DNA from: Thermodesulfovibrionales bacterium
GTDB lineage: Bacteria > Nitrospirota > Thermodesulfovibrionia > Thermodesulfovibrionales > UBA1546
Reading direction: 5' to 3'
DNA length: 36,459 bases
Assembly (NCBI GenBank): GCA_030018605.1
Contig: JASEHP010000001.1
Span: 1 to 36,459, forward strand
The translations under genes and the position numbers were made by a program. Shown in pieces: positions 1-13,943 of the stretch (position 1 is the first letter of the stretch; each line of letters begins with the position of its first letter). The notes under the pieces were generated by a model that made no database searches, was not told the DNA's origin, and was given only the letters and a program-made list of their open reading frames with translations.

Positions 1-473
1 GCCAATGGCACAAGAGAGAGAACATTGTACAGTACCTGCCTAAGAAGATGCAGAGCGAGTTCAGGAAGAAACTTCAGGCTGCCTATGAGAAAGAAGACTA
101 CGACAAAGCAAAGACAGCGCTGCTGGGTATCAAGAAGGAACTGCGCCTGATAAATGAATCAGCGGTTGCAAGCATGGAAGAGGGGTTTGAAGAGAGCCTG
201 ACTGTTCTCAGGCTCGGGCTGCCCAGAGAACTCAGGCGGAGCCTTAAGACAACAAACATCATTGAATCAGTGCTTGCACTTGTGGGACAGAAAACGGACA
301 AAGTGGATTATTGGAAAAACAGTGACCAAAAACAGCGCTGGGTGGCTACTGCATTACTGGACATTGAGCCGAGGCTTAACCGTGTATGTGGATACCGATA
401 TCTTAAGAACCTGAAAAATGCATTGCAGAGAGAAATCTTACAAGGAAAAAGAAAGGAGGCAGTGGCTGCCTGA
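1..473 (+). mobile_element. IS256-family (Mutator-type) transposase, 3' part only; the gene enters from beyond the left window edge
   Basis: The frame is open from nt 3 (QWHKRENIVQYLPKK...) and continues into ...SLKTTNIIESV.... This matches my recollection of the IS256-family C-terminal motifs (C-x-H-K-x-RN ... TN-x-IES). Stop at 471-473. About 50 bp of presumed IS end follow before the next gene fragment. Confidence 0.8.
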
Positions 474-505: not shown

Positions 506-1009
506 CTAACAATGGGATTGACACCACTCATGACGGGAACCATCCTGATGCAGCATCATGCCGATATATGGAGCCCGTGGCCGCTGCTTTCTGTGAGTTC
601 CCTTTCGAGAAGCTTTCTGTACAAGCCCTTTGGACTGAAGTGTCTTTTTTACCCATGTGTAACTCCTCATGCCACTGTGTGCCCTGCGATACCAACTATA
701 GAAATGTTTGGCGGTAAATCCCCTATATCTACGACTATACAGATCAGTTAAGGCAATGACTTCGTCAACCGGCGCACTGCGGTGCGATACCTGCCCCAGA
801 CGCCTGTCTGCAAGACCCCGCATCCCTTCTTCCTCATACCGAATCAGATAGCGCCGAAACGTCCTGTCACATACACCAAGCAGCCTTGCTGCCTCTTCCT
901 GCGTCAATCGCCCTCTATTCCATCCGTCATATGCTTCTTCAAATCTCATCTTCCGTACCTCCTGCAGTATCTCTGCCCTCTTCATGGATAGCTCCTCCTT
1001 GCTATCCAA
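506..1009 (-). pseudogene. ISNCY/IS1202-type transposase, N-terminal fragment truncated by the IS256-type element
   Basis: There is an N-terminal HTH region (RLTQEEAARLLGVCDRTFRRYLIRYEEEGMRGLADRR). Homology stops right at the start of the DDE/rve core (GMMLHQDGSRHEW). The last 5 codons (CQSHC) and the stop appear to be read-through into the neighbouring IS end. At 167 aa it is far shorter than a full transposase of this type. Confidence 0.7.
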
Positions 1010-1774: not shown

Positions 1775-2635
1775 TTATTTAAGTGATAACTTTACCAGTT
1801 TCCCTTTTGTCTCACAGCCCTCTGCACACCTGCCGCAGTAGATGCAGTTTATATCTCTGAGTCCGGGTTGGTCAATGTGTCGGGCTATTTTCACGTTCAT
1901 ATAACATAATCTATCACAGAGGTTGCACTCGCCGCACTCTCCCGGGTAGTATTTGAGTTTAAGGAGACTTACCTTATTAAACAATCCGTAAGTCTTTCCA
2001 ACAGGGCATAATACCCTGCACCATGTCCTCGGGAATATGTATTCAAAGACAAGCAGAAAGACTATAACCCCGCCTGAATATACAAGCACCGAAGGCTCAA
2101 ACGGCAGATTAAGGGCAAGAAAAACACCGCCTGTAATGAATCTAAAAAAGTTTGTGAGATGAGAGATATAGTTTGTAAAGAACGGGATGCCTAACAGTCC
2201 TGAAACAACAAGCAGTCCGGCTGCTATCCCATAACCAATCTTTGGTGATGCCTTGACCTTTACCTTTGACCAGTTTTTGAATCCGTCCACAATCTCAAAA
2301 AGGAAATCCATGGGGCATACCCAGCCGCAGAATGCCCTGCCGAATATGAGATAAATGCCAATGATTGGAACAACTGCGATTAGGGTTGTAGTTGTAAAAT
2401 CCTTTGATGCTGCCAGACTCTCAAAATAAGCAAATACATCAATGAGCTTTACAAACCATCTCGCCAGAGAACCTGAGAGTCCGCCAACCAGCGCCTTTAC
2501 ACGAAAAAACTGCAACAAAAAGAATATTAGGACGCTGAACATCACAAAACGCCTGAGATTGGATAGCTTCAGTAATGAGTTCGGAGTTCGGAGTTCGGAG
2601 TTTAGTGTCTCTTTATCTTTTAACTCATAACTCAT
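1775..2635 (-). CDS. napH: NapH-type membrane-bound polyferredoxin (quinol dehydrogenase membrane subunit)
   Basis: Several TM helices, two CX3CP motifs (CGWVCP, CRVLCP), and two C-terminal CX2CX2CX3C clusters (CGECNLCDRLC, CIYCGRCAEGC). The ATG at 2635 has AGGAG 9 nt upstream and follows the napG stop. The tracked GTG at 2671 is an alternative start. Confidence 0.85.
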   Translation of the reverse strand: MSYELKDKETLNSELRTPNSLLKLSNLRRFVMFSVLIFFLLQFFRVKALVGGLSGSLARWFVKLIDVFAYFESLAASKDFTTTTLIAVVPIIGIYLIFGRAFCGWVCPMDFLFEIVDGFKNWSKVKVKASPKIGYGIAAGLLVVSGLLGIPFFTNYISHLTNFFRFITGGVFLALNLPFEPSVLVYSGGVIVFLLVFEYIFPRTWCRVLCPVGKTYGLFNKVSLLKLKYYPGECGECNLCDRLCYMNVKIARHIDQPGLRDINCIYCGRCAEGCETKGKLVKLSLK

Positions 2636-2649
2636 AACTCTTGACTCCT
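2577..2649. repeat. Two heptamer arrays in inverted orientation: (GAGTTCG)x3 + GAGTTTA, a 17-nt spacer, then (AACTCAT)x2 AACTCTT GACTCCT
   Basis: Read directly. The arrays lie at the napG/napH junction, in the first ~20 codons of napH, and encode MSYEL...SELRTPNS. Confidence 0.9.
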
Positions 2650-2657
2650 GACTGTCT

Positions 2658-3428
2658 TTAACGGTATTCACGTTCTACCAATCTCCCCTTTGCCATAATC
2701 TGGGGCAGATTCTGTCCGTAAACAATGTTGTATCTCTCCTCGTTGGACATTGCAAGCAGTCTCTTAAACTCATCCACATATGGCGTTTTAACTTTCTCAT
2801 ACTGTCTTTCGGTAATCACCTTTATAGCAGAACCGCCGAGCGGGCAGTATTTGACACAGAGGCCGCAGCCGACGCAGTTTTCATTTATATACGGCTGGTT
2901 GCCCCATTCGCCGTTGTAAAAATCAAAGATATTTGCGCCCATAGGACATGCCTTGCTGCATGAAAGACAGACATCGCCGTTCCAGCCAAAACAGAGGCCG
3001 AAATCAATAAGCGCCATTCCCATTGTAACTTTCTCTTTTTTGAGGTTTTTCAGAGCGTCTGTTGGACAATGCTTGGGACACTCCATGCACAGTTCACAAG
3101 GGAAATCCCTCATGTCCTTGATATACGGCGTGCCGAAGTTTCTTATGTCTTTGATTCCGGCAACTGCAATGGCGTCGTATTTCATCGTATGGCATACATT
3201 CACGCACACGCCGCAGCTTATGCACTTTGCCCTGAACTCTTTTTCAGGCAAAGCGCCCGGCGGCCTTATAATGCCGCCGACCTCTATATTCGGAAGAGGA
3301 CCCTCGAATTCTTCCTTAGCTGCGTAAGCATTCCTTTCCAAAAGATAAAAAGGGCTGCCTATTACAGCAGCGCTGCCTGTTATCAGCGATGCCTTCAAAA
3401 AATCTCTTCTGGTGAAATGATTCTGCAC
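2658..3428 (-). CDS. napG: NapG-type periplasmic ferredoxin with four [4Fe-4S] motifs (TAT-exported)
   Basis: Twin-arginine signal (TRRDFLKASLITGSAA) and four Cys clusters: CISCGVCVNVC, CELCMECPKHCP, CLSCSKACP, CVGCGLCVKYCP. Directly upstream of napH. Confidence 0.85.
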   Translation of the reverse strand: MQNHFTRRDFLKASLITGSAAVIGSPFYLLERNAYAAKEEFEGPLPNIEVGGIIRPPGALPEKEFRAKCISCGVCVNVCHTMKYDAIAVAGIKDIRNFGTPYIKDMRDFPCELCMECPKHCPTDALKNLKKEKVTMGMALIDFGLCFGWNGDVCLSCSKACPMGANIFDFYNGEWGNQPYINENCVGCGLCVKYCPLGGSAIKVITERQYEKVKTPYVDEFKRLLAMSNEERYNIVYGQNLPQIMAKGRLVEREYR

Positions 3429-3443
3429 AGCCCTTACAGCGCT

Positions 3444-4382
3444 TTATTTTTTCTCAGGGGCAGCGCTGCCTTTTGCCTTATCTTTCCCGCTGTCCTTTAT
3501 GCCCTTTGAGGCAAGGTATTTGTCCACTTCCGCCTTGTTAATTTTAACCTTGTACATCTTTTTTATATCCTGCAGATATTTGTCTAATATCTCCTTCTGC
3601 TTCTCCTGCAGCAGAACCCTTCTAATATCTTCCTTTATATTGTTGATGTCAACATTTTTGCCTTTTTTCCTGTCAGTAACCTTGATAATGTGATAGCCGA
3701 ATTCGGTCTTGACAGGCTGGCTTACATCGCCCTTCTTCAATGCCCTGATGGCATTGTTGAACTCAGGCGGCATTTTGCCATCCTCGAAGGAGCCGAGATC
3801 GCCGCCGAGCGCTGCACTCTGTTTGTCTTCAGACAGCTCTTTTGCCACCTTTGCAAAATCCTCACCTTTTTTAATCCGCTCATGCGCCTTCTTTATAGTC
3901 GCCTCGGATTTGGTCATGATATGGCTCAACCGGATTTGTTCGGGAGATGCTAACTCGCCCATATTCTTCTTGTAATACTCTTTTATCTCGCTGTCGGAAA
4001 CCTTAACCTTCTGCGACAGCTCTTTTTCGAGAAGCATCTGTATTATGGTGATCTTTTTATAGTATTCGAGCTTTTTCTGAAGGGCGCTGTCCTTGTCTAT
4101 GCCTTTTTTTACGGCCTCCTGGTGCAGGGCTTCCTTGTTTGCCATGTCCTCGAGGAAACGCATAAACTGGTTGGAATCCTGCAAAAATGCCTCCCGTACA
4201 TCCTCCGGCATACTCTGAAGCTCTTTCTCAATATCATCTTTGGTTATGCCGATTTCATTCAGTTTGACCAGCGCTGTCCCGGTTTGCTTGCCGGGGTCAG
4301 CCTTCTTTGGCTGCTCGCCTTCCTTTTTGGCGCATGAAGCTATAAGCAAAAGACTAACAAAAAACAATAAAAACTTTTTCAT
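3444..4382 (-). CDS. Parvulin-type peptidyl-prolyl cis-trans isomerase lipoprotein (PrsA/SurA/PpiD-like)
   Basis: Lipobox (LLLIASC), a long helical chaperone-like region, then a parvulin core (RLSHIM...GGDLGSF...FGYHIIKV). Confidence 0.85.
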   Translation of the reverse strand: MKKFLLFFVSLLLIASCAKKEGEQPKKADPGKQTGTALVKLNEIGITKDDIEKELQSMPEDVREAFLQDSNQFMRFLEDMANKEALHQEAVKKGIDKDSALQKKLEYYKKITIIQMLLEKELSQKVKVSDSEIKEYYKKNMGELASPEQIRLSHIMTKSEATIKKAHERIKKGEDFAKVAKELSEDKQSAALGGDLGSFEDGKMPPEFNNAIRALKKGDVSQPVKTEFGYHIIKVTDRKKGKNVDINNIKEDIRRVLLQEKQKEILDKYLQDIKKMYKVKINKAEVDKYLASKGIKDSGKDKAKGSAAPEKK

Positions 4383-4513: not shown

Positions 4514-5458
4514 TTACTCTTCTGCTGTCTTCAGACGAATGGCGTCATAATGCAGCCCCTGTTCTTCGTAAAGTACAGACAGAGCCGCTCTGATTAGTTT
4601 TGCCTCTTTGCTGGCAGGACCCTTAATCTCATCAATAATTGCAAGCGCCTTTCTGTAATACATTTCGCTCTCTATATATTTCTTCTGTGTATGATAATTG
4701 GCGGCAATGCCAATCAATGTCTTTACATAATCAATATGCGCGATGCCAACGGCATTCTCTATGATATGCATTGCTCTTTTATAATACTGCTCTGCCTCTT
4801 CAAACATCTTCATAGTCCTGTGCATCCCAGCAAACAAATACAGCGCTTCTGCCATCTCTGCGCCGTATGGATTGCCATGCGACTCAAGCATCTGTATAAC
4901 CGCTTTAAGCGATAGTTCCGCTTCTCTGAACATGGCCCTGATAATATATAGTTCTGCGCGATGAATTAAAATATCTGCAACTCCGGGATATTTTATGCTC
5001 TCGCGGTTCAGCGCCATAGGATCTAACCCTTTTATGGCAAATGCTTTCATCAGCACAGTCTCTGCCTGCCTGAATAATTTGTCCGCCTTTGTGTATTGCC
5101 GTAATCCCATATAAATCCTCGCCTGCAAAGCATATGCAAGGGCGGCATTCAGATGAACATCTCCGAAATCCTGCGTTGCTGTTTCCAATGCCTTTGTAGA
5201 AGTCTCAAGGGCGCAGGCAAGTTTGCCTGCTTTGCGCAGAGCCTCAGCGGTCTCATATAACTTCTTCCAGTTATCAACCTTTGCCTGCCCAATATCTTCC
5301 GGCGCAGGAGCAGGATTTCCACCTGCAAGATATACCCCGCAGGCAACTGCCTCTATAGGATCTTTCTCCTGATTTACAGGTGAGGGTACTTCTCCTGCAT
5401 AAACTGTATTGCCAAACAAAACAAATAACAACCCCACCAAAATCCCTGAAAATCTCAC
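4514..5458 (-). CDS. Secreted TPR-repeat protein
   Basis: N-terminal signal peptide (ILVGLLFVLFGNTVYA). Repeated A/Y/L-rich 34-residue-like helical repeats (e.g. ...EAEQYYKRAMHI..., ...ESEMYYRKALAI...). Confidence 0.75.
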   Translation of the reverse strand: MRFSGILVGLLFVLFGNTVYAGEVPSPVNQEKDPIEAVACGVYLAGGNPAPAPEDIGQAKVDNWKKLYETAEALRKAGKLACALETSTKALETATQDFGDVHLNAALAYALQARIYMGLRQYTKADKLFRQAETVLMKAFAIKGLDPMALNRESIKYPGVADILIHRAELYIIRAMFREAELSLKAVIQMLESHGNPYGAEMAEALYLFAGMHRTMKMFEEAEQYYKRAMHIIENAVGIAHIDYVKTLIGIAANYHTQKKYIESEMYYRKALAIIDEIKGPASKEAKLIRAALSVLYEEQGLHYDAIRLKTAEE

Positions 5459-5598: not shown

Positions 5599-8500
5599 CT
5601 ATACAACAATCTTTCCGGGCTCCGCCTGTCTGCCCTTTGTTTTTCCCTTGTATATCTTTACTGCAAACATCTTGAAGTCTGCCTGGAAGCTGAACGGATC
5701 AAAGGCATCCCTCATTATCATGTTGATGAGCTTGAACTCGTCAAACCACGGGATAAAGACATAGTCATGTCTCGGACCGCCGGTCGCTTTCTGGACATCA
5801 AGTATCTTAGCCGGAAGCTCTATCTTACCTCTCGGCGATTCAACGATAACCGAATCACCATTCTTAATATTGAGCTTCTTAGCAAGTATCTCGTTGATCT
5901 CGACATAAGCGCCGGGAACTGCGCGTGTCAGTTCAGGAACCCTTGCGGTCATGGAGCCTGAGTGCCAGTGCTCAACAACACGGCCTGTACATGCGCCGTA
6001 TTTGTAATCGGTGGTGTCAATGATCAGAAGCTTGCTTCCGTCAGCCTTTGTGTATTCATGCTTAAGGTTATGGAATTCAGCAGGGCTTAATGCTATGTTC
6101 TTCAGGGCATTCATGTCCTTGTTCGGATCTCCGACAACATTGACAGTGTATTTTGCCTTCACATCAAAGGGTAGTGCGCTATTCTCATTTACCTTGCTGG
6201 GATTAAAGGCCCTCTCAAGAACCTCAACGGTATTATGCCTTACAAACTGTTTGCCGTCGAACTTGCATGCCCACCATGGGTTTGCCCATGCTACAGCCCT
6301 GCCGTCCCAGCCCGGAGCCTTTCTGGTTTTTCCGTCCGGAGTCTTGATATCTACCATGCCGTTGATAAAGGCATTAGAGTTGTAGAAGCTTGCATACCAT
6401 CCGGAAGGAAGGTTTTCCGCCCTGTGGTATTCCGCATCATTCTTCATGTCATTGATGTTTTTCTCAAGCCATGAGCCATAGACCGGATTAAACTCCTTCA
6501 TATTCTTCATATAGAAGGCGGTCTTACCGTCTATATGCGGGTCATATGGATAGGCATATTGTATGCTGGAGACGTACTTGTCGTATCTCTTCTTTACATC
6601 GGCATTGGTGTGATACTCTGCGGGCAGGGGAATCCTGTAGCCGTGGTTCTGCTCAAGGAGCATCTTCCTGTTCATACCGCTAAAGTCATAGCCTGTGCCC
6701 TTGGAGAGGGCCATGAGTTCTTCCCAAATGTTGGTGGAGAACTTTCTGTTCCAGTCCTTTGTTTTGCCTGCCTCAATAGTCTTTTTGAGCCAGTCTGCGC
6801 CGTCGTATTCCGCCGGCCAGAACATGGAGACATGCCCTTTAGGGACGAGTCCCTTTTCCTCAAGCCTTCTCATGATACATGCAAAGATGGTGTGGTCAGG
6901 GAGTGTATCTCCATAAGGCTCAATGACCTGTTTGACAATCTGATACCTTCTCTCAAGGTTTCCGTATATGAATTCCTTTTCATACCATGAGGATGCGCCG
7001 AGCACCACATCAGAAACCATTGTGGTTGCATTCGGGAATGCCTCAAGGGTTACGGTAAGCGGCCATGCCGCTCCTTTGTGAGCGCCTGCCATTGCAAGCC
7101 TGTAGGGCCATGAATATGGAAGGCTCTGCCCGGAGTTAACCGTGGAGTTTATCATTATCTTTATCTGTCCTGCTCCAAGCCTTCTGAACATCTCAACTGT
7201 ATGGGGACCGGGCTTGTCGTGGATCTTGATTTTATCAAGTTCAGCTTTTATTGCTTCTGCTGACATGCCTTTCTTCTTCAAATAAGCTTCAGCCCTGCCT
7301 TTCCATATACCTTCAACTGCTGCCCTGTGCAGAGGATTAGCAACAAGCCTTCCATAAGGAAGCGCATGGCACAATGCTCCCGGCGCCCTGATTCCGCCGC
7401 AGGCATTGGGCTGTCCTGTAAAGCTGAAGGAATGCCTTCCGGGTTTTACTGTCTGTCCTGTGATAAGGTTGATCATGTGTAAAGAGGCGTTTGTCCATGT
7501 TCCTTGAAGCTTCTGATTAACGCCCATACACCATGCAGACAGTGTGTATCCTTCAGCATACCATTTAGCAGCAAGCCTCACTGCATCTGGCCCGCTAATC
7601 TTCTTCCATGTCCTTGTTGCTTTGTCATAGAGGAGAGGGGATTCACCCTCAAATATCGCATCGGAGACCTTTTCAGGTTTGTAGTCTTCAAGGAACTTCA
7701 GGAATACGGCAAAACCCTTGTAGAGGTCTTTCATTACATCTTCCTCTGAGGCATATTTGTTTTTCAGGTTTGGATAAGTCTTTCTCGGCTCTGCTGAATA
7801 TGTCAAATCCCAGGCTGCGTCCCTCGTGCCGCCATATGTGGTCTTTACCCATGTCTTCTTCACATCCTCGTGTATTCCAAAGCTTACATGTCTTTCAATG
7901 AACTTCTTGTCAAGGTATTTCCACTTTGCATCAACTGTGCCTTTCTCCACATCATACTTTGCGCCGTCAAGCTCATGGGTAATAACATACGCTATTGAGT
8001 TGAGAAGCACGAGGTCCCTGCCTGTTGCAAACGGAAGCCATAAATCGGCAATTGTTCCGGAACGGGTCTTTCTCGGGTCAGCGAGGATTACCTTTACATT
8101 TGGTTTTTTTGCCTTCAATGCTGCAATCCTGTTGAAGATTATGGGATGTCCTTCTGCTGTGTTACTTCCTATCAGGAAGAATGTATCGGCAGTTTTGCCA
8201 AAATCAGGGTCTGGAACATCAATATCGTCAAGGCTTCCGTAAGGCTCGTCTTTTCCAAATGTATAAAGATAGCCCACGACTGCGGATGCCATACACATTC
8301 TCGGCTGCCCTTCTACCGCGTTATTTGCAAGCATGCCGCCGCCCTTGAGGGTTTTATTCATAATGTGGGTCTCTTCCGTTCCTGCCTGACCGCTGCCGTA
8401 ATATGCAACACTGTGTTTGCCGTTTTCTTTGACTGTCTTTTCCACTGCATCAGCCACAAACTCTATGGCATCTTCCCACGGTATGAGAACAAAATTCTCT

Positions 8501-8934
8501 TTCAGGTCAACCTCAGATGGTTTTATCCCATGCGGATCTTTTGTGTTTTTCCCTTCAAGAACCCTCGGGCAGTCCTTCAGGTCAGGCTTTCCTGTTTTGG
8601 GATTAATCAATTCCTTTCTTACATAAGCGCCCTTTGGCCTGTCCTTGTACATGAGCGCCTTATGGACATAAAATCCTTTTGTGCAGAGGACGCCCCTGTT
8701 CACAGGGCTCTTGAGGTCTCCTTTAATTGCAATAACCTTTGTTACCTTGCCTGCTGCGTCAACTTCACAGTCTGCTATCATAGTGCACCCAACTGCACAA
8801 TATCTGCACTGTCCCACTGGAAATGTTTTTATAGAACCAGCAGCAAACAGCATTTCCGGCTTAGCAATCCCGGCCCCAGCGGCAGCAGCGGTTATAGCGC
8901 TTGCCCTTAGAAAATCTCTTCTACTGAGTTTCAT
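5599..8934 (-). CDS. napA: Periplasmic molybdopterin oxidoreductase, NapA-like catalytic subunit, unusually long (1111 aa)
   Basis: TAT signal ([19 protein letters not shown]) and an N-terminal CX2CX3C...C FeS motif (CRYCAVGC...[11 protein letters not shown]). There is a NapA-type Mo-ligand segment ([20 protein letters not shown]). C-terminal NapA signatures are present: [20 protein letters not shown] and [20 protein letters not shown]. These motifs align to E. coli NapA as I recall it, but the protein is about 280 aa longer. Confidence 0.85.
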   Translation of the reverse strand: [1111 protein letters not shown]

Positions 8935-8952: not shown

Positions 8953-9477
8953 TTACTTCTTGCCTTTTTTACTGGTTTTGCCAGCCGTTGGCTGTATGGT
9001 AAAACCGTCAGCGGTTATTGCATCTCCGAATGGAGAGTAATCGCCATTGGCAGCTATTGCCATTACTTTTAATTCTACGTCAACTTTTTCCTGAGGCGCC
9101 TTCCATTCAAATGCCCATGACCTGCGCTCAGAACCTTCTAATGTCTGTGTCAGATAGGAGTCTGAAAGCTGGGTGTTTTTCTTGTCAGATACTATTAATT
9201 CTCCTGCAGACGCCTTAACTGAAAATCCGCCCTGCACCTCACTCATGCTTTTTGTTTTGCAGTCTACACTCACGGTAAGTTTATATGTCATTCCCGGCTC
9301 ATATTGTTTTGGAATGCCTGTGACTTTAATAGTGGCTGGCGCGCTTGCTCCAGTGTGGCATGTATAGCATTCAAAATTTGGAGCGCTATTATTACTCGTG
9401 AAGCCTATTGAACCGAATAAGAGGGTAATGCTGAACAATACAATTAAATACATAACAGTCTTTTTAGTCTTTGCCAT
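8953..9477 (-). CDS. Secreted monohaem c-type cytochrome with a beta-rich domain, in the NapB position
   Basis: Single CXXCH (CYTCH) right after a signal peptide or anchor. The rest is strand-like (TYKLTVSV, GGFSVKA, WAFEWKAP, VELKVMAIAANGD). The ATG at 9477 has AAGGGGTGG upstream. The stop is 18 nt before the napA-like start. Confidence 0.7.
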   Translation of the reverse strand: MAKTKKTVMYLIVLFSITLLFGSIGFTSNNSAPNFECYTCHTGASAPATIKVTGIPKQYEPGMTYKLTVSVDCKTKSMSEVQGGFSVKASAGELIVSDKKNTQLSDSYLTQTLEGSERRSWAFEWKAPQEKVDVELKVMAIAANGDYSPFGDAITADGFTIQPTAGKTSKKGKK

Positions 9478-9626: not shown

Positions 9627-11396
9627 CTACTTTCCTGCTGGCATTGCTGCTGCTGCTCTTTTGTCAGCAATTGCCTTGTTCAGGATGTCAATGCCTTTCC
9701 ATGAAAGAACAACTGACCTTGCGAGTGTTACCTTGGCGTTCTCAATGTTATGGAAACCATCGGAATTCTCGCCGGTCCACCATTCCCAGTACATGTGCGC
9801 ATCTTCGTGGATCTTTCTAACTTCATTAAGTGTCTTCACATCAACACCCCAGTCTTTTGCGCGCTGGAATGCATCAACAAGTTCCCTCAGCCAGACCTCT
9901 GCCTTTCTCATGTTCTGCTTGACGTAGTTCTTCGCAGAGTCTGCGGCATAGCCGGCATCATGTGATGTCCAGTCCGGATGGCAGGTAAGGCATGGCTTCC
10001 ACTCCATCGCCCTTGGGGAAACATGGAAGTGGGAAGAATAGGTCTTGCCATCCTTGCCCTTCTTCTTGCCTGCTGTATGGCAGGTTGTGCAGGTTGCTCC
10101 AGCCTTTGCGTGAGTAGAGTTGTAGAATGCCTCTGCCTCAGGGTGCTGCGACTTCCAGAGCTTTGCGCCTGTGATATAGTGGGCTAAATCAAAATATTTC
10201 CACTTTTCAAGGTGCTTTTTAAAGGTCTCATCAACAATCTTATGCTTTTCAACCTTTGCCAGTCCCTTGAACGGGAAGTGGTTGGTCCTTCTGTCAGTTG
10301 CAAAGTCAAGGGCTACAGGCGGCTTGCCCCATTCAGACTTTTCATAGTCAAAGTGGAGACCGCAGTTGTACTCAACATGGCACTGACCGCACTGAAGTAT
10401 TGGGTCATACTTGCTGAGGATTGCAATCTTCCTCTCATGTCCGCGGAATCCGAGGCCGTCTTTATTGCTGTAAACCTTGATATCTGCCTTTCCGGGGTAG
10501 CCCTCATGCCAGAGTGTGTCGGTCTGGGTTGTGAGCGCCTCTATAAGAGCGTCTCTCACAATCCTCGGTTTTGCCGCATGCGGGTCATGGCAATGAATAC
10601 ATGGCAGAGCGTTCCTCAGATACTTCACCGCATTGTAAGCAGGATTTCCTGCTCTGCTGATGTCAGAGGTCTTTGGTGAAGGATCGCCCATGTACGGCCA
10701 TGCAAGATGGTCGTCAGATGATTTACATTTTAAACAAACAGGAACTGCCGCAGGAGCTGTCCTTTCCTGAAATGCCTTCTTGGGAGCCTTGAGGTCAACA
10801 TCAGGATATGCATCATAGAGGACATCCCATGCCTTGGGGGCTATGCCGCTCTTGTCTATTACATACTTGAAACCATTCTTTGACTTGAACCTTCCGCCGT
10901 AAGACCTGTCATTAATCAGATGGTCAATAAGCATATACTTGTGGCTTCTGGTCTCATTGTGGCTGATTTCAAAGGCATAAGGTCTGATGAGGGTTTCCCA
11001 GAAAGGCGAGCGGGACTTGGGGTCGCCCTTGTCAAACTGAGCCTTTTTCTCATAGTTGTGACCGATGAAACTTGCGTGCTGGTCTTTGTGACACTTGCCG
11101 CATGCCTCGTGGTCAGTGTTGGTTGAAGGTCTGCTCTTCACGTCTGCAAGGTGTTTGTCAATGCCATCATGACAGTTGATGCAGTTTACAGTCTTGTGGA
11201 TTCCATTTGTGTGGAAATCCTTAATAAGGGCATGGCATGCGTAGCATGTCTCTACCTTTACATCTTTTACTGCAGCTTTTGCTGCGGCTTTTGCAGGGAC
11301 AGCTTTCTTCTGGGCATCAGCACTCGTATAATAGACGCCTCCTACTATGACAAGCGCCAGAACTAAAATAAATGATACATAAATCTTTTTACTCAT
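9627..11396 (-). CDS. Octahaem cytochrome c nitrite reductase (ONR/TvNiR-like, NrfA-related)
   Basis: Seven CXXCH motifs (CYACH, CINCH, CGKCH, CIHCH, CGQCH, CTTCH, CLTCH) plus one CXXCK (CLKCK) as the fourth motif. NrfA-like segments are CLKCKSSD and CGQCHVEYNC. N-terminal signal/anchor. The ATG at 11396 has AAGGAGG 8 nt upstream; the tracked start at 11447 is less likely. Confidence 0.85.
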   Translation of the reverse strand: MSKKIYVSFILVLALVIVGGVYYTSADAQKKAVPAKAAAKAAVKDVKVETCYACHALIKDFHTNGIHKTVNCINCHDGIDKHLADVKSRPSTNTDHEACGKCHKDQHASFIGHNYEKKAQFDKGDPKSRSPFWETLIRPYAFEISHNETRSHKYMLIDHLINDRSYGGRFKSKNGFKYVIDKSGIAPKAWDVLYDAYPDVDLKAPKKAFQERTAPAAVPVCLKCKSSDDHLAWPYMGDPSPKTSDISRAGNPAYNAVKYLRNALPCIHCHDPHAAKPRIVRDALIEALTTQTDTLWHEGYPGKADIKVYSNKDGLGFRGHERKIAILSKYDPILQCGQCHVEYNCGLHFDYEKSEWGKPPVALDFATDRRTNHFPFKGLAKVEKHKIVDETFKKHLEKWKYFDLAHYITGAKLWKSQHPEAEAFYNSTHAKAGATCTTCHTAGKKKGKDGKTYSSHFHVSPRAMEWKPCLTCHPDWTSHDAGYAADSAKNYVKQNMRKAEVWLRELVDAFQRAKDWGVDVKTLNEVRKIHEDAHMYWEWWTGENSDGFHNIENAKVTLARSVVLSWKGIDILNKAIADKRAAAAMPAGK

Positions 11397-11617
11397 CCAA
11401 AATACCTCCTTATTGAAGTGATGCATCTTTTTTGCTGCTTGGACCATTTTACTGCTTTGACCATTTTGTTGTGCTTCTCACCCCCCTTATCTTATTTGTG
11501 GTAATCAATTTTATAATAATAGCACATTAATATAATTTTTGGGTTAGTAAATGTGCGGTTAATTTGTGTAAAGATTCGGTAAAAGTGTTTTTAGGAGAAA
11601 ACGTCTGAAAATGCGGA

Positions 11618-12295
11618 CTACTGTCTGAATTTGTATCCGGCGCCGGACACAGTCAAAATGTACTCCGGCTCGGAAGGATTTTTTTCTATCTTATGCCTGA
11701 GATGCTGGATATGGACGTCTATGACTCTGCTCCATGAATATATTTCAGATTCCCTCCATATCTTTTTTCTGATAAATTGCCTGCTGATTACTTCGCCTCT
11801 GTTTGTGATAAAGAGATGCAGCAGTTCATATTCCTTCGGGGTGAGTTCAATCTCTTTGCCTTTGACTTTAACTGTGTGAGCGCTGAAATTAACTTCCAGA
11901 TTATTGATTACGATTGTGCTGTCAACAGGCATGGTCCTTTTGAGGCACGCTCTTATTCTCGCTATGAGTTCAAGCGTTTCAAAAGGTTTTACTATGTAAT
12001 CGTCAGCGCCGCTTTCAAAGCCCATTACCTTATCAAAGACGCTGTCTTTTGCTGTGAGCATAATAATGGGTATTCTGGGATACTGGTCTTTCAATAACCT
12101 GCATATCTGGATTCCGTCGCTGTCAGGGAGCATGAGGTCAAGTATTATAATATCCGGCAGCTGATTATTCAGTATATCGTGCGCTTCTGCCCAATTGGCG
12201 GCTGTGACAGCATCAAACCCGTACAACTCAAAGTTTGCCTTAAGCACTTTTAATATGTCAGGGTCATCATCTACAACAAGCAGTTGTTTTTTCAT
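11618..12295 (-). CDS. OmpR/PhoB-family response regulator
   Basis: Receiver domain (LVVDDDPDI...IILDLMLPDSDG...LTAK) plus a winged-helix C-terminus (LTPKEYELL...EYILTVSGAGYKF). Overlaps the kinase gene stop. Confidence 0.9.
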   Translation of the reverse strand: MKKQLLVVDDDPDILKVLKANFELYGFDAVTAANWAEAHDILNNQLPDIIILDLMLPDSDGIQICRLLKDQYPRIPIIMLTAKDSVFDKVMGFESGADDYIVKPFETLELIARIRACLKRTMPVDSTIVINNLEVNFSAHTVKVKGKEIELTPKEYELLHLFITNRGEVISRQFIRKKIWRESEIYSWSRVIDVHIQHLRHKIEKNPSEPEYILTVSGAGYKFRQ

Positions 12296-13943
12296 CCAGA
12301 AAAACCTCTTTTCTTGTCATCGGTACAGTGAACCAGAAGCGGCTGCCTTTGCCTTCAGCAGTCTTTAGCCCTATCTCTCCGTTATGCGCTTCTATTATGC
12401 CTTTGCATATTGCAAGTCCCAGCCCTGTGCCGTCTTTCACGCCTCTTGAGTAGAATTGTCTGAATACCATCTCTTTTTCAGCCTCAGCGATACCATATCC
12501 CCTGTCCTCTACGCTTGCATTTGCATATCCGTTCGTTCCGGCGAGCGTGACAATGATATCGGATGATTCAGGACTGAAGTTTAACGCATTGGACAGAAGA
12601 TTTGTCAGCACCTGCTTTATCCTGTCTTCATCAGCATGAACTGTTACATCCTCTCCCCTGAGTTCTATATTGACTTTTTTCCCCTCCGCCAATGACCTGA
12701 AGCCTGTGATAACCTCATCAAAAACATCGTTCAGGTTTATTTCTTTAAAATGCATTTCAAATTCACCAAGTTCTATCCGCTCGTAGTCAATCACGTTATT
12801 TACCAGCCTTATCAGCCTCTCGGCATTATTTTTTATTACCTCAAAAAATACTTTAAGGTCTTCCTCATTCTCTTTTCCGTGCATTGAAAGTCTTACGGAG
12901 AGGTAATCCATTGCTCCTTTTATGGACGTAAGGGGCGTCCTTAATTCGTGTGAGATATTTGCAATAAAAGCGGATTTTGTTTTATTTAATCTCAACAGGC
13001 TCTCGTTTTTTTCTGTAAGTTCCCTCGTAGCTGTGATTATCTTATCATGGAGACACCTATGGTATTCATCAATAGACTTTGCCATGTCTATAAAAGATTT
13101 GCTTAACTCTTCAAGTTCGTCATTTGTTTTGATAACCGGGATATCAGGATTGCCGTCTTTTGAGAAAGCAAGCATGAGGGTTCTAATTTTTTTTATGGGG
13201 CTTATGACAAGTCGTTTTGTTGTCATAAACAACACGGCGATGAGCACCGCAACGGTAATAATGCTGCCGAACAGCATGTATTTTCTGTCAGAATGTATTA
13301 CATTGAATGCATAGTCCATCGGGATGGATACACTTATGGCTCCTCTTATGTCGCCGACATTATAGCCCTGCTTGTCATGGCAGTGAAGACATGCCTTTTC
13401 AACATAAAGCGGGGCAATGTATCTGAAGTAATAAGAGCGTCCAATCTTTTCAACAGTTGATGAGTCTTTTAGTTTTTTTGTCTCAAAGTCTTGAAGCGCT
13501 TTCTTTTCAAAGGCGTCAGGGGCATTTTCGGGATTCATGAGTTTAAGGCTGGTTATATGAAACCAGAAGAGCCCTTCTTTCGCAGCGTACATGGAAAGTT
13601 CTTTTGTGACCATGGCAGGATTTCTCTTAACATACCTCATGCCCTCGGTATCGACTATCTCTGATTTCATGCCTTTAAGATAAGGGTTTGGCTTTATCCA
13701 TGGCAGCCTTTCCACAAATACCCCTCCGTGGTCAGCGATCCACCTTCTTGTAATTACCAGCTGCTGGAACAGCGCCTTTGCCTGCATCTCTATCTGAGTG
13801 AGCACAAGCCTCTCGTGTCTTTTGGAAATGACGATAAGTGTTATTCCCATTACGGCAGCAAGGATTATGATTGTGGAGATTATATACTTCAGGCTAAGGT
13901 TTATCCGCATCTGAAACATCCATCGGAACAGCTGTTCCGGCAA
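12267..13943 (-). CDS. Sensor histidine kinase with an extracytoplasmic c-haem (CXXCH) sensor domain, HAMP, HisKA and HATPase domains
   Basis: One TM, then a ~190-aa domain ending in CLHCHDKQGYNVGDIRGAISVSIP (DUF3365-like by recollection), then a second TM. H-box SHELRTPL, with G-boxes in the C-terminus. The exact start is uncertain (TTG 13943, ATG 13919 or 13910; no clear SD). Confidence 0.85.
   Translation of the reverse strand: MPEQLFRWMFQMRINLSLKYIISTIIILAAVMGITLIVISKRHERLVLTQIEMQAKALFQQLVITRRWIADHGGVFVERLPWIKPNPYLKGMKSEIVDTEGMRYVKRNPAMVTKELSMYAAKEGLFWFHITSLKLMNPENAPDAFEKKALQDFETKKLKDSSTVEKIGRSYYFRYIAPLYVEKACLHCHDKQGYNVGDIRGAISVSIPMDYAFNVIHSDRKYMLFGSIITVAVLIAVLFMTTKRLVISPIKKIRTLMLAFSKDGNPDIPVIKTNDELEELSKSFIDMAKSIDEYHRCLHDKIITATRELTEKNESLLRLNKTKSAFIANISHELRTPLTSIKGAMDYLSVRLSMHGKENEEDLKVFFEVIKNNAERLIRLVNNVIDYERIELGEFEMHFKEINLNDVFDEVITGFRSLAEGKKVNIELRGEDVTVHADEDRIKQVLTNLLSNALNFSPESSDIIVTLAGTNGYANASVEDRGYGIAEAEKEMVFRQFYSRGVKDGTGLGLAICKGIIEAHNGEIGLKTAEGKGSRFWFTVPMTRKEVFLDEKTTACCR

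Follow-up and report, generated by a model that had tools for sequence, protein, structure and literature searches.

The 36,459 nucleotide (nt) stretch of DNA considered here, hereafter the window, comprises positions 1 to 36,459 (forward strand) of contig JASEHP010000001.1, from a Thermodesulfovibrionales bacterium of the phylum Nitrospirota (assembly GCA_030018605.1). On its minus strand lies an operon centred on a napA gene, which codes for a NapA-type periplasmic nitrate reductase catalytic subunit. The genes on this strand follow one another in the order histidine kinase, response regulator, octahaem cytochrome, a 174 amino acid (aa) monohaem protein (here named cytS), napA, tetratricopeptide repeat (TPR) protein, PpiC-type isomerase, napG, napH and a napD-like gene, with intergenic gaps of -29 to 170 nt (Table 1). 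A single minus-strand open reading frame (ORF) of 1111 codons occupies the napA interval, 5599-8934. It begins with ATG, and a ribosome-binding site, AAGGAGG, precedes the start codon by a few bases. The 1111 aa product is referred to below as long NapA. An earlier note, drawn up from the DNA letters, had placed a NapA homologue in this interval, and the location stands, but the note left the minus strand unstated and missed the 2017 description of the Desulfurivibrio counterpart.

Table 1. Coordinates of the long napA gene, of the segments of its product and of the neighbouring genes in the window
Feature	Position	Strand	Basis
napA, long type, molybdenum bis(pyranopterin guanine dinucleotide)/[4Fe-4S] catalytic subunit, 1111 aa	5599..8934	-	ORF, translation, Pfam and NCBIfam, PDB NapA (E = 1.5e-120), AlphaFold2 model (pLDDT 90.3)
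Twin-arginine translocation (Tat) signal peptide, aa 1-33, SRRDFL	8836..8934	-	TIGR01409 (25 bits, cut-off 16.7); Pfam TAT_signal
[4Fe-4S] segment, C43-x2-C46-x3-C50...C84 and K86; includes a 6 aa family-specific insert (aa 60-65)	8677..8808	-	Invariant columns, 71-sequence alignment
Insert I-b, aa 108-144, directly behind the FeS domain	8503..8613	-	MAFFT map; conservation analysis
Cys214 codon, predicted Mo ligand (D. desulfuricans Cys140), followed by Met215	8293..8295	-	Residue-level alignment to 2jio; invariant column
Composite block II, aa 322-447 (322-338, 364-406 and 428-447; 80 aa), domain III	7594..7971	-	Alignment, model
Insert III, aa 550-569, helical	7228..7287	-	Alignment, model
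Insert IV, aa 709-732, helical; hot spot shared with an E. coli NapA insert	6739..6810	-	Alignment
Composite block V, aa 789-974 (789-797, 804-833, 855-876, 887-947 and 957-974; 140 aa)	6013..6570	-	Alignment, model
cytS, 174 aa, monohaem c-type (CYTCH), N-terminal signal/anchor helix, Reeler-like beta-sandwich	8953..9477	-	NCBIfam, model, synteny
Octahaem nitrite reductase, TvNiR/TaNiR family	9627..11447	-	PDB 3sxq (E = 1e-118), 8rv0 (E = 7e-116)
napG, Tat-exported poly-ferredoxin	2658..3428	-	Best match NCBIfam NapG, 103.6 bits (below cut-off 269); kept downstream of long napA
napH, membrane quinol-oxidising FeS protein	1775..2671	-	Best match NCBIfam NapH/MauN, 117 bits (below cut-off 213); synteny
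napD-like chaperone, 88 aa	1426..1692	-	phmmer, 74 bits to a D. alkaliphilus gene carrying a weak Pfam NapD match
TPR protein between napA and napG	4514..5458	-	Pfam TPR_12
PpiC/PrsA-type peptidyl-prolyl isomerase between napA and napG	3444..4382	-	Pfam Rotamase
OmpR/PhoB-type response regulator	11618..12295	-	Pfam/NCBIfam; overlaps the kinase gene by 29 nt
Histidine kinase, periplasmic Tll0287-like domain with CLHCH motif	12267..13943	-	Pfam/NCBIfam, motif

Three Pfam domains, Molybdop_Fe4S4 (aa 42-92), Molybdopterin (aa 146-687) and Molydop_binding (aa 982-1089), are found in long NapA, and the translation contains the CRYCAVGC motif. NapA is the top NCBIfam family (NF010055; E = 6.6e-130, 434.8 bits), against the formate dehydrogenase alpha subunit (Fdh-alpha; E = 6e-69, 232.7 bits) and NasC (E = 3e-55), while the closest PDB chain by sequence is the NapA of Desulfovibrio desulfuricans (E = 1.5e-120). 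Residue-level alignment to structure 2jio equates C214-M215, D229-E230, M470 and R516 with C140, M141, D155/E156, M308 and R354, respectively, of the D. desulfuricans enzyme. These residues, together with C43/C46/C50/C84 and K86, are invariant in a 71-sequence alignment; the roles of the second-sphere residues (Asp155/Glu156, Met308 and Arg354 in D. desulfuricans) are taken from published NapA structures. Judged from its sequence, the ORF is thus a NapA-type enzyme with catalytic residues matching nitrate reduction. A formate dehydrogenase identity was rejected on the basis of the Cys-Met motif, found in place of a selenocysteine/Cys-His dyad, and of the Fdh-alpha score, which is far below that for NapA. 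The nap operon context is likewise present, with napG, napH and napD downstream both here and in nearly all related bacterial loci, and the only mark of NapA membership that long NapA lacks is a score above the threshold of the curated hidden Markov model (HMM). The identification made in the earlier note is therefore borne out, in that all of the diagnostic segments it quoted occur in the translation, the best matches in both sequence and fold are NapAs, and the active-site residues are consistent with nitrate reduction.

Alignment with MAFFT against nineteen NapAs of 750-810 aa, the next-best matches at ~35 % identity, leaves 333 residues of long NapA without a counterpart. These are distributed over fifteen segments (aa 60-65, 108-144, 240-247, 322-338, 364-406, 428-447, 550-569, 709-732, 789-797, 804-833, 855-876, 887-947, 957-974, 1048-1053 and 1100-1111, the last being a 12 aa C-terminal tail), the boundaries of which depend on the alignment to within roughly +/-5 aa. 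The two blocks to which the earlier note assigned the excess account for 244 of the 333 residues (~73 %), with 80 in aa 320-461 and 164 in aa 666-982, while five smaller inserts were overlooked. Its baseline, 750-830 aa among characterised NapAs, no longer applies, as the NapA of Campylobacter jejuni, which has been characterised and for which a cryo-electron microscopy structure is available, comprises 924 aa (PMC12769810). The inserts add to each of the four domains and lie at insertion hot spots found throughout NapA. For example, the block II site is also used by the NapAs of E. coli and C. jejuni.

Fourteen of the fifteen segments are occupied in the archaeal homologues, with aa 855-876 restricted to bacteria. 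The mean majority-residue frequency among thirty-four bacterial sequences is 0.71 for the inserts and 0.83 for the core, and identity reaches 95 % or more at thirty-three insert positions over all fifty-two long sequences, bacterial and archaeal. Insert I-b is the densest in residues invariant across the bacterial and archaeal long forms, with eight of these thirty-three positions (L109, I110, P112, P117, P123, R124, V125 and K132) falling within its 37 aa. Lysine makes up 15.3 % of the inserts and 7.7 % of the core. Since aspartate is also enriched (8.7 % versus 5.0 %), the net charge of the inserts is only mildly positive. No Pfam domain is found in the inserts even at E <= 10, and block II and a profile of block V have no match at E <= 10 among PDB chains, including that of C. 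jejuni NapA. An exhaustive phmmer search with block V against 1.84 billion representative proteins returned the family representative, one fragment and one chance match. The latter (P0158; E = 2.6e-4), the lone match outside the family, was put down to chance, being of low complexity and showing spurious Pfam matches scattered over it.

An AlphaFold2 model of long NapA, built from the 71-sequence alignment, has a mean predicted local distance difference test (pLDDT) value of 90.3 and a predicted template modelling score (pTM) of 0.92. Most insert regions exceed a pLDDT of 90, and the inserts thus appear as confidently folded added structure, as the earlier note had supposed. Block II is modelled as a small beta-sheet plus long helices, and block V as a set of three helices and then, ahead of the domain-IV barrel, a beta-rich module. 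Foldseek comparison of the model with the PDB places its four-domain fold nearest to the solved NapAs. The top eight matches are all NapAs (template modelling score on the target, TMt, 0.81-0.90), led by the D. desulfuricans structures (0.88-0.90; 2v45, 0.90) and followed by those of E. coli, Cupriavidus and Rhodobacter, with formate dehydrogenases coming thereafter. As the solved structures cover only ~60 % of the model at most (score on the query, TMq, <= 0.60), the inserts are without structural precedent among these relatives.

Searching 5.8 billion proteins yielded ~78 bacterial clusters of long NapA with 58-91 % identity, almost all of them 1101-1116 aa in length and two of them 1135-1136 aa, and ~23 archaeal clusters of 1220-1290 aa with ~40 % identity over 96 % of the query. 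Finished genomes encoding the protein include those of Desulfurivibrio alkaliphilus, Pyrolobus fumarii, Hyperthermus butylicus and Ignicoccus islandicus. Long NapA forms a small family. When 185,579 species genomes were scanned with the block V alignment, fifty-eight long-napA loci were obtained, which derive from Nitrospirota (Thermodesulfovibrionales and Dissulfurispiraceae), Caldimicrobium, Desulfurivibrio and other Desulfobulbaceae, Kryptonia, Ignavibacteriales, Bacteroidota, Pyrodictiaceae and Ignicoccus. The idea that the extra length stems from faulty assembly or annotation, or from fusion to a domain already known, deserves practically no credence. There are ~100 clusters of independent full-length long homologues, finished genomes included, and the inserts are interleaved with the core rather than appended to it, with no Pfam domain, no PDB match (blocks II and V) and no outside homologue (block V). 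The additional length reported in the earlier note is therefore real, and the same insertions recur in homologues, in bacteria and, for fourteen of the fifteen segments, in archaea. A neighbour-joining tree of 766 core columns, with a single outgroup and a restricted set of NapAs, recovers the bacterial long forms as monophyletic, and likewise the archaeal ones and the union of both, each in 100/100 bootstraps. The long clade stands apart from the short NapAs in 100/100 replicates, its placement relative to these plus E. coli NapA being recovered in only 55/100. Long NapA most likely represents a distinct, deep-branching periplasmic nitrate reductase lineage, the Desulfurivibrio/Kryptonia/Nitrospirota type, of which the inserts would be an ancestral hallmark.

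The cytS gene lies directly upstream of napA, at a distance of 18 nt. Its product matches the NCBIfam family 'choice-of-anchor V' (NF041895) with 96.8 bits against a cut-off of 42, a term that does not occur in the literature searched. The model of cytS is a nine-stranded beta-sandwich with the F-spondin Reeler domain as its best PDB fold match (E = 8.8e-7). There are no cytochromes among the fold matches of this model, and Pfam Reeler matches in cytS homologues are weak. Identification of cytS as NapB was rejected, given the presence of one CxxCH motif instead of two, a beta-sandwich instead of an all-alpha fold and the lack of a cytochrome fold match. The linkage between the two genes is strict. 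In 44/44 bacterial-type loci that contain a complete napA gene and sufficient sequence ahead of it, a cytS gene precedes napA on the same strand at a distance of no more than 300 nt, and when cytS was used as query in reverse, a long napA was found 0-119 nt downstream in 25/25 metagenome loci. The archaeal cytS homologue (36 % identity) carries a C-terminal membrane anchor and occurs within a few kilobases (kb) of napA in five loci with adequate flanks, while none was found within 7-9 kb in Ignicoccus pacificus (L055). Genes for a NapB-like dihaem or NapC-like tetrahaem cytochrome are not regularly present in the fetched long-napA loci, and no two-haem ORF adjoins napA.

Orthologues of these genes have been observed in nitrate-grown cultures. 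The napAGHD genes of D. alkaliphilus are highly expressed with nitrate, napB is missing, and the enzyme was described as a 'novel type of NapA' of which the 'electron donor is unknown' (Thorup et al. 2017, PMC5516251). This operon encodes a 1111 aa orthologue with 72 % identity to long NapA and has a 181 aa cytS gene directly upstream of it; the supplements of Thorup et al. (2017) hold no usable expression value for the gene upstream of napA. In Desulfurivibrio dismutans AMeS2, the 3336 nt RS11645 has a log2 S8/(formate + nitrate) ratio of -6.02 (p = 0.001), i.e. 65-fold more on formate plus nitrate, while RS11650 ('choice-of-anchor V', corresponding to cytS), NapG and NapH were detected by proteomics on nitrate only (PMC12142623 Table S1). 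The main-text discussion of nitrate in the latter study names NapAGHD alone, and RS11650 is not mentioned. Extracts of Pyrodictium delaneyi show nitrate reductase activity, which was credited by the authors to the 'Nap-like' Pyrde_1154-1156 (a locus tag not matched to the sequences used here).

It is likely that long NapA, as a member of this lineage, serves as the nitrate reductase of a nitrate-to-ammonium operon and receives its electrons from quinol by way of NapH and NapG and, probably, cytS. The protein would be exported in the folded state via the Tat pathway, with NapD assisting, would bind one [4Fe-4S] cluster and one molybdenum bis(pyranopterin guanine dinucleotide) cofactor with Cys214 as the Mo ligand, and would reduce nitrate to nitrite. 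Menaquinol would be oxidised by the membrane protein NapH and the electrons passed to the periplasmic NapG, with no NapB or NapC taking part. The last electron step would most likely lead from cytS to the FeS cluster of NapA, with cytS acting either as a bound subunit or as a dedicated shuttle. In the absence of NapB and NapC, and given its co-inheritance and co-expression with long NapA, cytS is the most likely candidate for the electron donor. With the neighbouring octahaem nitrite reductase converting the nitrite into ammonium, the operon would form a complete nitrate-ammonification module. Some of the inserts may form a docking surface for cytS and/or NapG, for which aa 108-144 would be the best candidate. 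Docking of cytS, a role also raised in the earlier note, appears plausible from the sequence data, and such a role is favoured for some of the inserts since they are conserved and co-inherited with cytS, in the 44/44 and 25/25 loci given above and with both also present in archaea. By contrast, docking of the octahaem reductase, which the earlier note had entertained, is unlikely to explain the inserts, as the octahaem gene is missing from Desulfurivibrio, Kryptonia and most archaeal loci, in which all of the inserts are kept.

A number of observations weigh against this interpretation. The NapA equivalog cut-offs are missed by long NapA (NF010055, 434.8 versus 904 bits; TIGR01706, 404.6 versus 930.55 bits), and the NCBI Prokaryotic Genome Annotation Pipeline (PGAP) names it merely 'molybdopterin oxidoreductase family protein', while the names for the family in IMG are NapA or 'anaerobic selenocysteine-containing dehydrogenase'. 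These labels can be attributed to an HMM score of less than half of the cut-off and to the NapA match being broken into three stretches by the inserts. The nitrate specificity of long NapA rests on expression data and conserved residues, and the Nap-like protein of P. delaneyi is no more abundant on nitrate than on iron. Homologues also occur in H. butylicus (P0082), I. islandicus (P0087) and I. pacificus (L055), archaea which are described as sulfur reducers or fermenters and are not known as nitrate respirers; the substrate of these homologues may differ, or their use of nitrate may have been overlooked. With regard to cytS, no Met, His or Lys besides His41 is conserved across the bacterial and archaeal proteins, which leaves none of these to act as the distal haem ligand, so that a redox role is not self-evident, and Tyr59 and Tyr65 are the only invariant candidates for the sixth ligand. 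Cytochrome f, a beta-sandwich c-type cytochrome with the N-terminal amino group as ligand, provides a lead in this regard. In D. dismutans the abundance of cytS is low (rank 1664), and its detection on nitrate only depends on missing values (PMC12142623).

The failed equivalog thresholds, the occurrence in the sulfur-respiring Ignicoccus and Hyperthermus and the unchanged abundance in P. delaneyi, along with the promiscuity of NapAs toward chlorate and perchlorate, would suit a NapA-like enzyme for chlorate/perchlorate, selenate or sulfur/polysulfide species, with nitrate reduction as a side activity. Such an enzyme is nevertheless very improbable here, considering that none of the NapA-specific residues in the first and second spheres varies, that the orthologues are nitrate-induced in two Desulfurivibrio species and that the gene is found beside an ammonifying nitrite reductase in most Nitrospirota loci. 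A better case, though one we doubt, can be made for the inserts as structural elaboration only, for example as a stabilising decoration retained from a thermophilic ancestor, with cytS acting by transient collision or having another function. The family is concentrated in thermophiles or their kin (Pyrodictiaceae, Caldimicrobium, Thermodesulfovibrionales and Kryptonia), and the inserts, besides being scattered as fifteen pieces over all four domains instead of making up a single module, occupy hot spots at which unrelated loops have arisen independently in other NapAs and show somewhat lower conservation than the core. However, their conservation is still high (0.71 in bacteria, with the thirty-three near-identical positions shared by bacteria and archaea), every insert is kept in mesophilic and alkaliphilic members, and the strict co-inheritance of cytS would need to be explained. 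Alternatively, the inserts may mainly remodel the substrate funnel, an effect that the earlier note had also considered, acting as Lys-rich lids by which nitrate or other anions would be concentrated and the affinity or specificity adjusted, in the manner proposed for C. jejuni NapA. The twofold lysine content of the inserts relative to the core, and the location of block II at the domain-III site of a large C. jejuni NapA insert, are compatible with this analogy, and three Lys-rich inserts have been placed at the substrate channel of the C. jejuni enzyme (PMC12769810). Yet the inserts have no detectable sequence similarity to C. jejuni NapA, and the parallel enrichment in aspartate tempers their charge; a role centred on the funnel is accordingly held to be rather unlikely. 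The docking, funnel and structural roles of the inserts are not mutually exclusive. Going beyond the preferred assignment of long NapA as a cytS-linked nitrate reductase, one may tentatively picture long NapA and cytS as an unrecognised two-subunit nitrate reductase, in which a Reeler-sandwich haem c protein replaces NapB, docks on the inserts and has a possibly unconventional sixth ligand, the lineage, common to bacteria and hyperthermophilic archaea, standing outside all other NapAs. This is speculative and we would not expect it to hold in full. If it were true, the position of the long lineage outside the other NapAs would challenge the published view of the ~750 aa NapA as ancestral.

The closest known systems are those of D. 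alkaliphilus and D. dismutans, which share 72-73 % identity, the length of 1111 aa, every insert, the gene order cytS-napA-napG-napH-napD and the absence of napB and napC. They differ from the window in that the latter has, in addition, the upstream octahaem nitrite reductase as well as the TPR protein and isomerase between napA and napG. The extra length is not remarked upon in the main texts of the Desulfurivibrio papers (PMC5516251, PMC12142623), and the napAGHD designation omits the upstream cytochrome. The long NapA of the window is a new member, at 72 % identity, of the lineage flagged in 2017 as a novel NapA type, and hence does not represent a new kind of system. The monomeric NapA of D. 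desulfuricans (2NAP, 2V45, 2JIO) has the FeS motif, the Cys-Met pair, the M308 and R354 equivalents and the lack of NapB in common with long NapA, but comprises 723 residues in the crystal versus 1111, covers 59 % of the model (TMq 0.59) and has none of the fifteen inserts. The nap operon of D. desulfuricans uses NapC/NapM and is not known to employ cytS. Assignment to the subgroup of small monomeric NapAs (~720-760 aa; Jepson et al. 2006) was rejected; NapB is absent as in that subgroup, but long NapA has 1111 aa and falls in a separate clade.

The C. jejuni enzyme (9PXT; PMC12769810) is likewise enlarged by Lys-rich surface insertions. Its two largest insert regions (aa 275-411 and 603-805) are found at the sites of blocks II and V (aa 320-464 and 681-974 in long NapA), a comparison which relies on HMMER alignment coordinates. 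It differs in that its inserts have no detectable sequence similarity to those of long NapA, with HMMER aligning only core segments to 9pxt, and in belonging to a heterodimeric NapAB-type branch. Long NapA is 187 aa larger and has further inserts, such as aa 108-144. Membership of the Campylobacterota-type enlarged NapAs (925-975 aa) was thus rejected, as the Lys-rich insertions are not detectably homologous. With E. coli NapAB (2NYA), the system shares NapG, NapH and NapD homologues and 34 % core identity over 766 columns, and small inserts are present in E. coli NapA at hot spots I-b, II and IV. There, however, a dihaem NapB and a tetrahaem NapC are employed, which are absent here, and NapA comprises 828 versus 1111 aa. 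The heterodimeric NapAB type was rejected for long NapA because no dihaem NapB is encoded beside long napA in the fetched loci examined.

The 'Nap-like' enzymes of Pyrolobus fumarii, P. delaneyi (Pyrde_1154), Hyperthermus and Ignicoccus resemble long NapA in having fourteen of the fifteen inserts, NapG/NapH-like genes downstream and a cytS homologue nearby. These archaeal forms differ in their length (1220-1290 aa), an N-terminal Thr-rich linker/anchor and extra inserts, and their cytS is membrane-anchored and not always adjacent; no napD was detected at the archaeal long-NapA loci. In P. fumarii, a Thr-rich linker follows the Tat/anchor region of long NapA (L003, 8001-11753), and a linker of this kind is also found in cytS (L003, 6046-6720), together with a transmembrane helix at the C-terminus. 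Both proteins would thus appear to be tethered to the membrane, on the outside of the cell. One metagenome-assembled genome labelled 'archaeon' (L051, contig JALTZZ010000036.1) encodes a 1135 aa form with 58 % identity, in the bacterial order cytS-napA-napG-napH-napD and with an octahaem gene. Either the contig has been binned wrongly, or this form is an intermediate in a transfer between the bacterial and archaeal types. In Ca. Kryptonium (L004/L042, 13224-16438), genes for a Rieske protein, cytochrome b and an octahaem cytochrome are located behind the nap genes, which suggests that a different route of electrons from quinol to the periplasm is coupled to the same long NapA.

A NapA phylogeny of 2025 and a review of 2026 distinguish length classes of ~750-800, 850-875 and 925-975 aa, treat the 924 aa NapA of C. 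jejuni as the largest, and make no mention of the long-NapA lineage or of archaea. With its 333 conserved extra residues, long NapA would be the largest NapA architecture known, and because archaea share this architecture, the long form bears on the evolution of NapA. The insert architecture, the archaeal presence and the strictly linked Reeler-fold monohaem cytochrome were not found described in the literature searched. In many metagenome studies this gene has served as the basis for inferring that sulfur-cycling Nitrospirota, relatives of Desulfurivibrio and Kryptonia carry out nitrate ammonification, yet it is not called NapA by the NCBI pipeline, and its lineage is absent from the specialist literature on NapA. 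The electron route to NapA in Desulfurivibrio has been explicitly open since 2017, and the adjacent cytS provides a concrete, testable candidate, which would represent a new fold class for a c-type cytochrome.

Of the remaining genes in the operon, the one encoding the octahaem protein is found alongside cytS-napA in most Nitrospirota and Caldimicrobium loci. The protein has seven CxxCH motifs, with CLKCK as the fourth haem motif, and matches the octahaem nitrite reductases of Thioalkalivibrio and Trichlorobacter (E ~1e-118). Its annotated start is possibly 17 codons too far upstream, with an MSKKIY start located further in. The 88 aa napD-like protein has no Pfam match of its own. Homologues of the isomerase occur near napA in a minority of the related loci (~10, six of them strong; L023-L026, L035 and L036), and the TPR protein recurs solely in one of these (L026). 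Both may be maturation helpers for large periplasmic proteins. In the histidine kinase, which is encoded upstream of the operon, the CLHCH motif in the periplasmic domain suggests a haem-based sensor, perhaps of nitrite, nitric oxide or redox state. Past the end of the nap operon, the C-terminal fragment of a Mutator-family transposase (48-473, plus strand) and an insertion sequence-like helix-turn-helix ORF (506-1009, minus strand) look like mobile-element remnants at the operon border.

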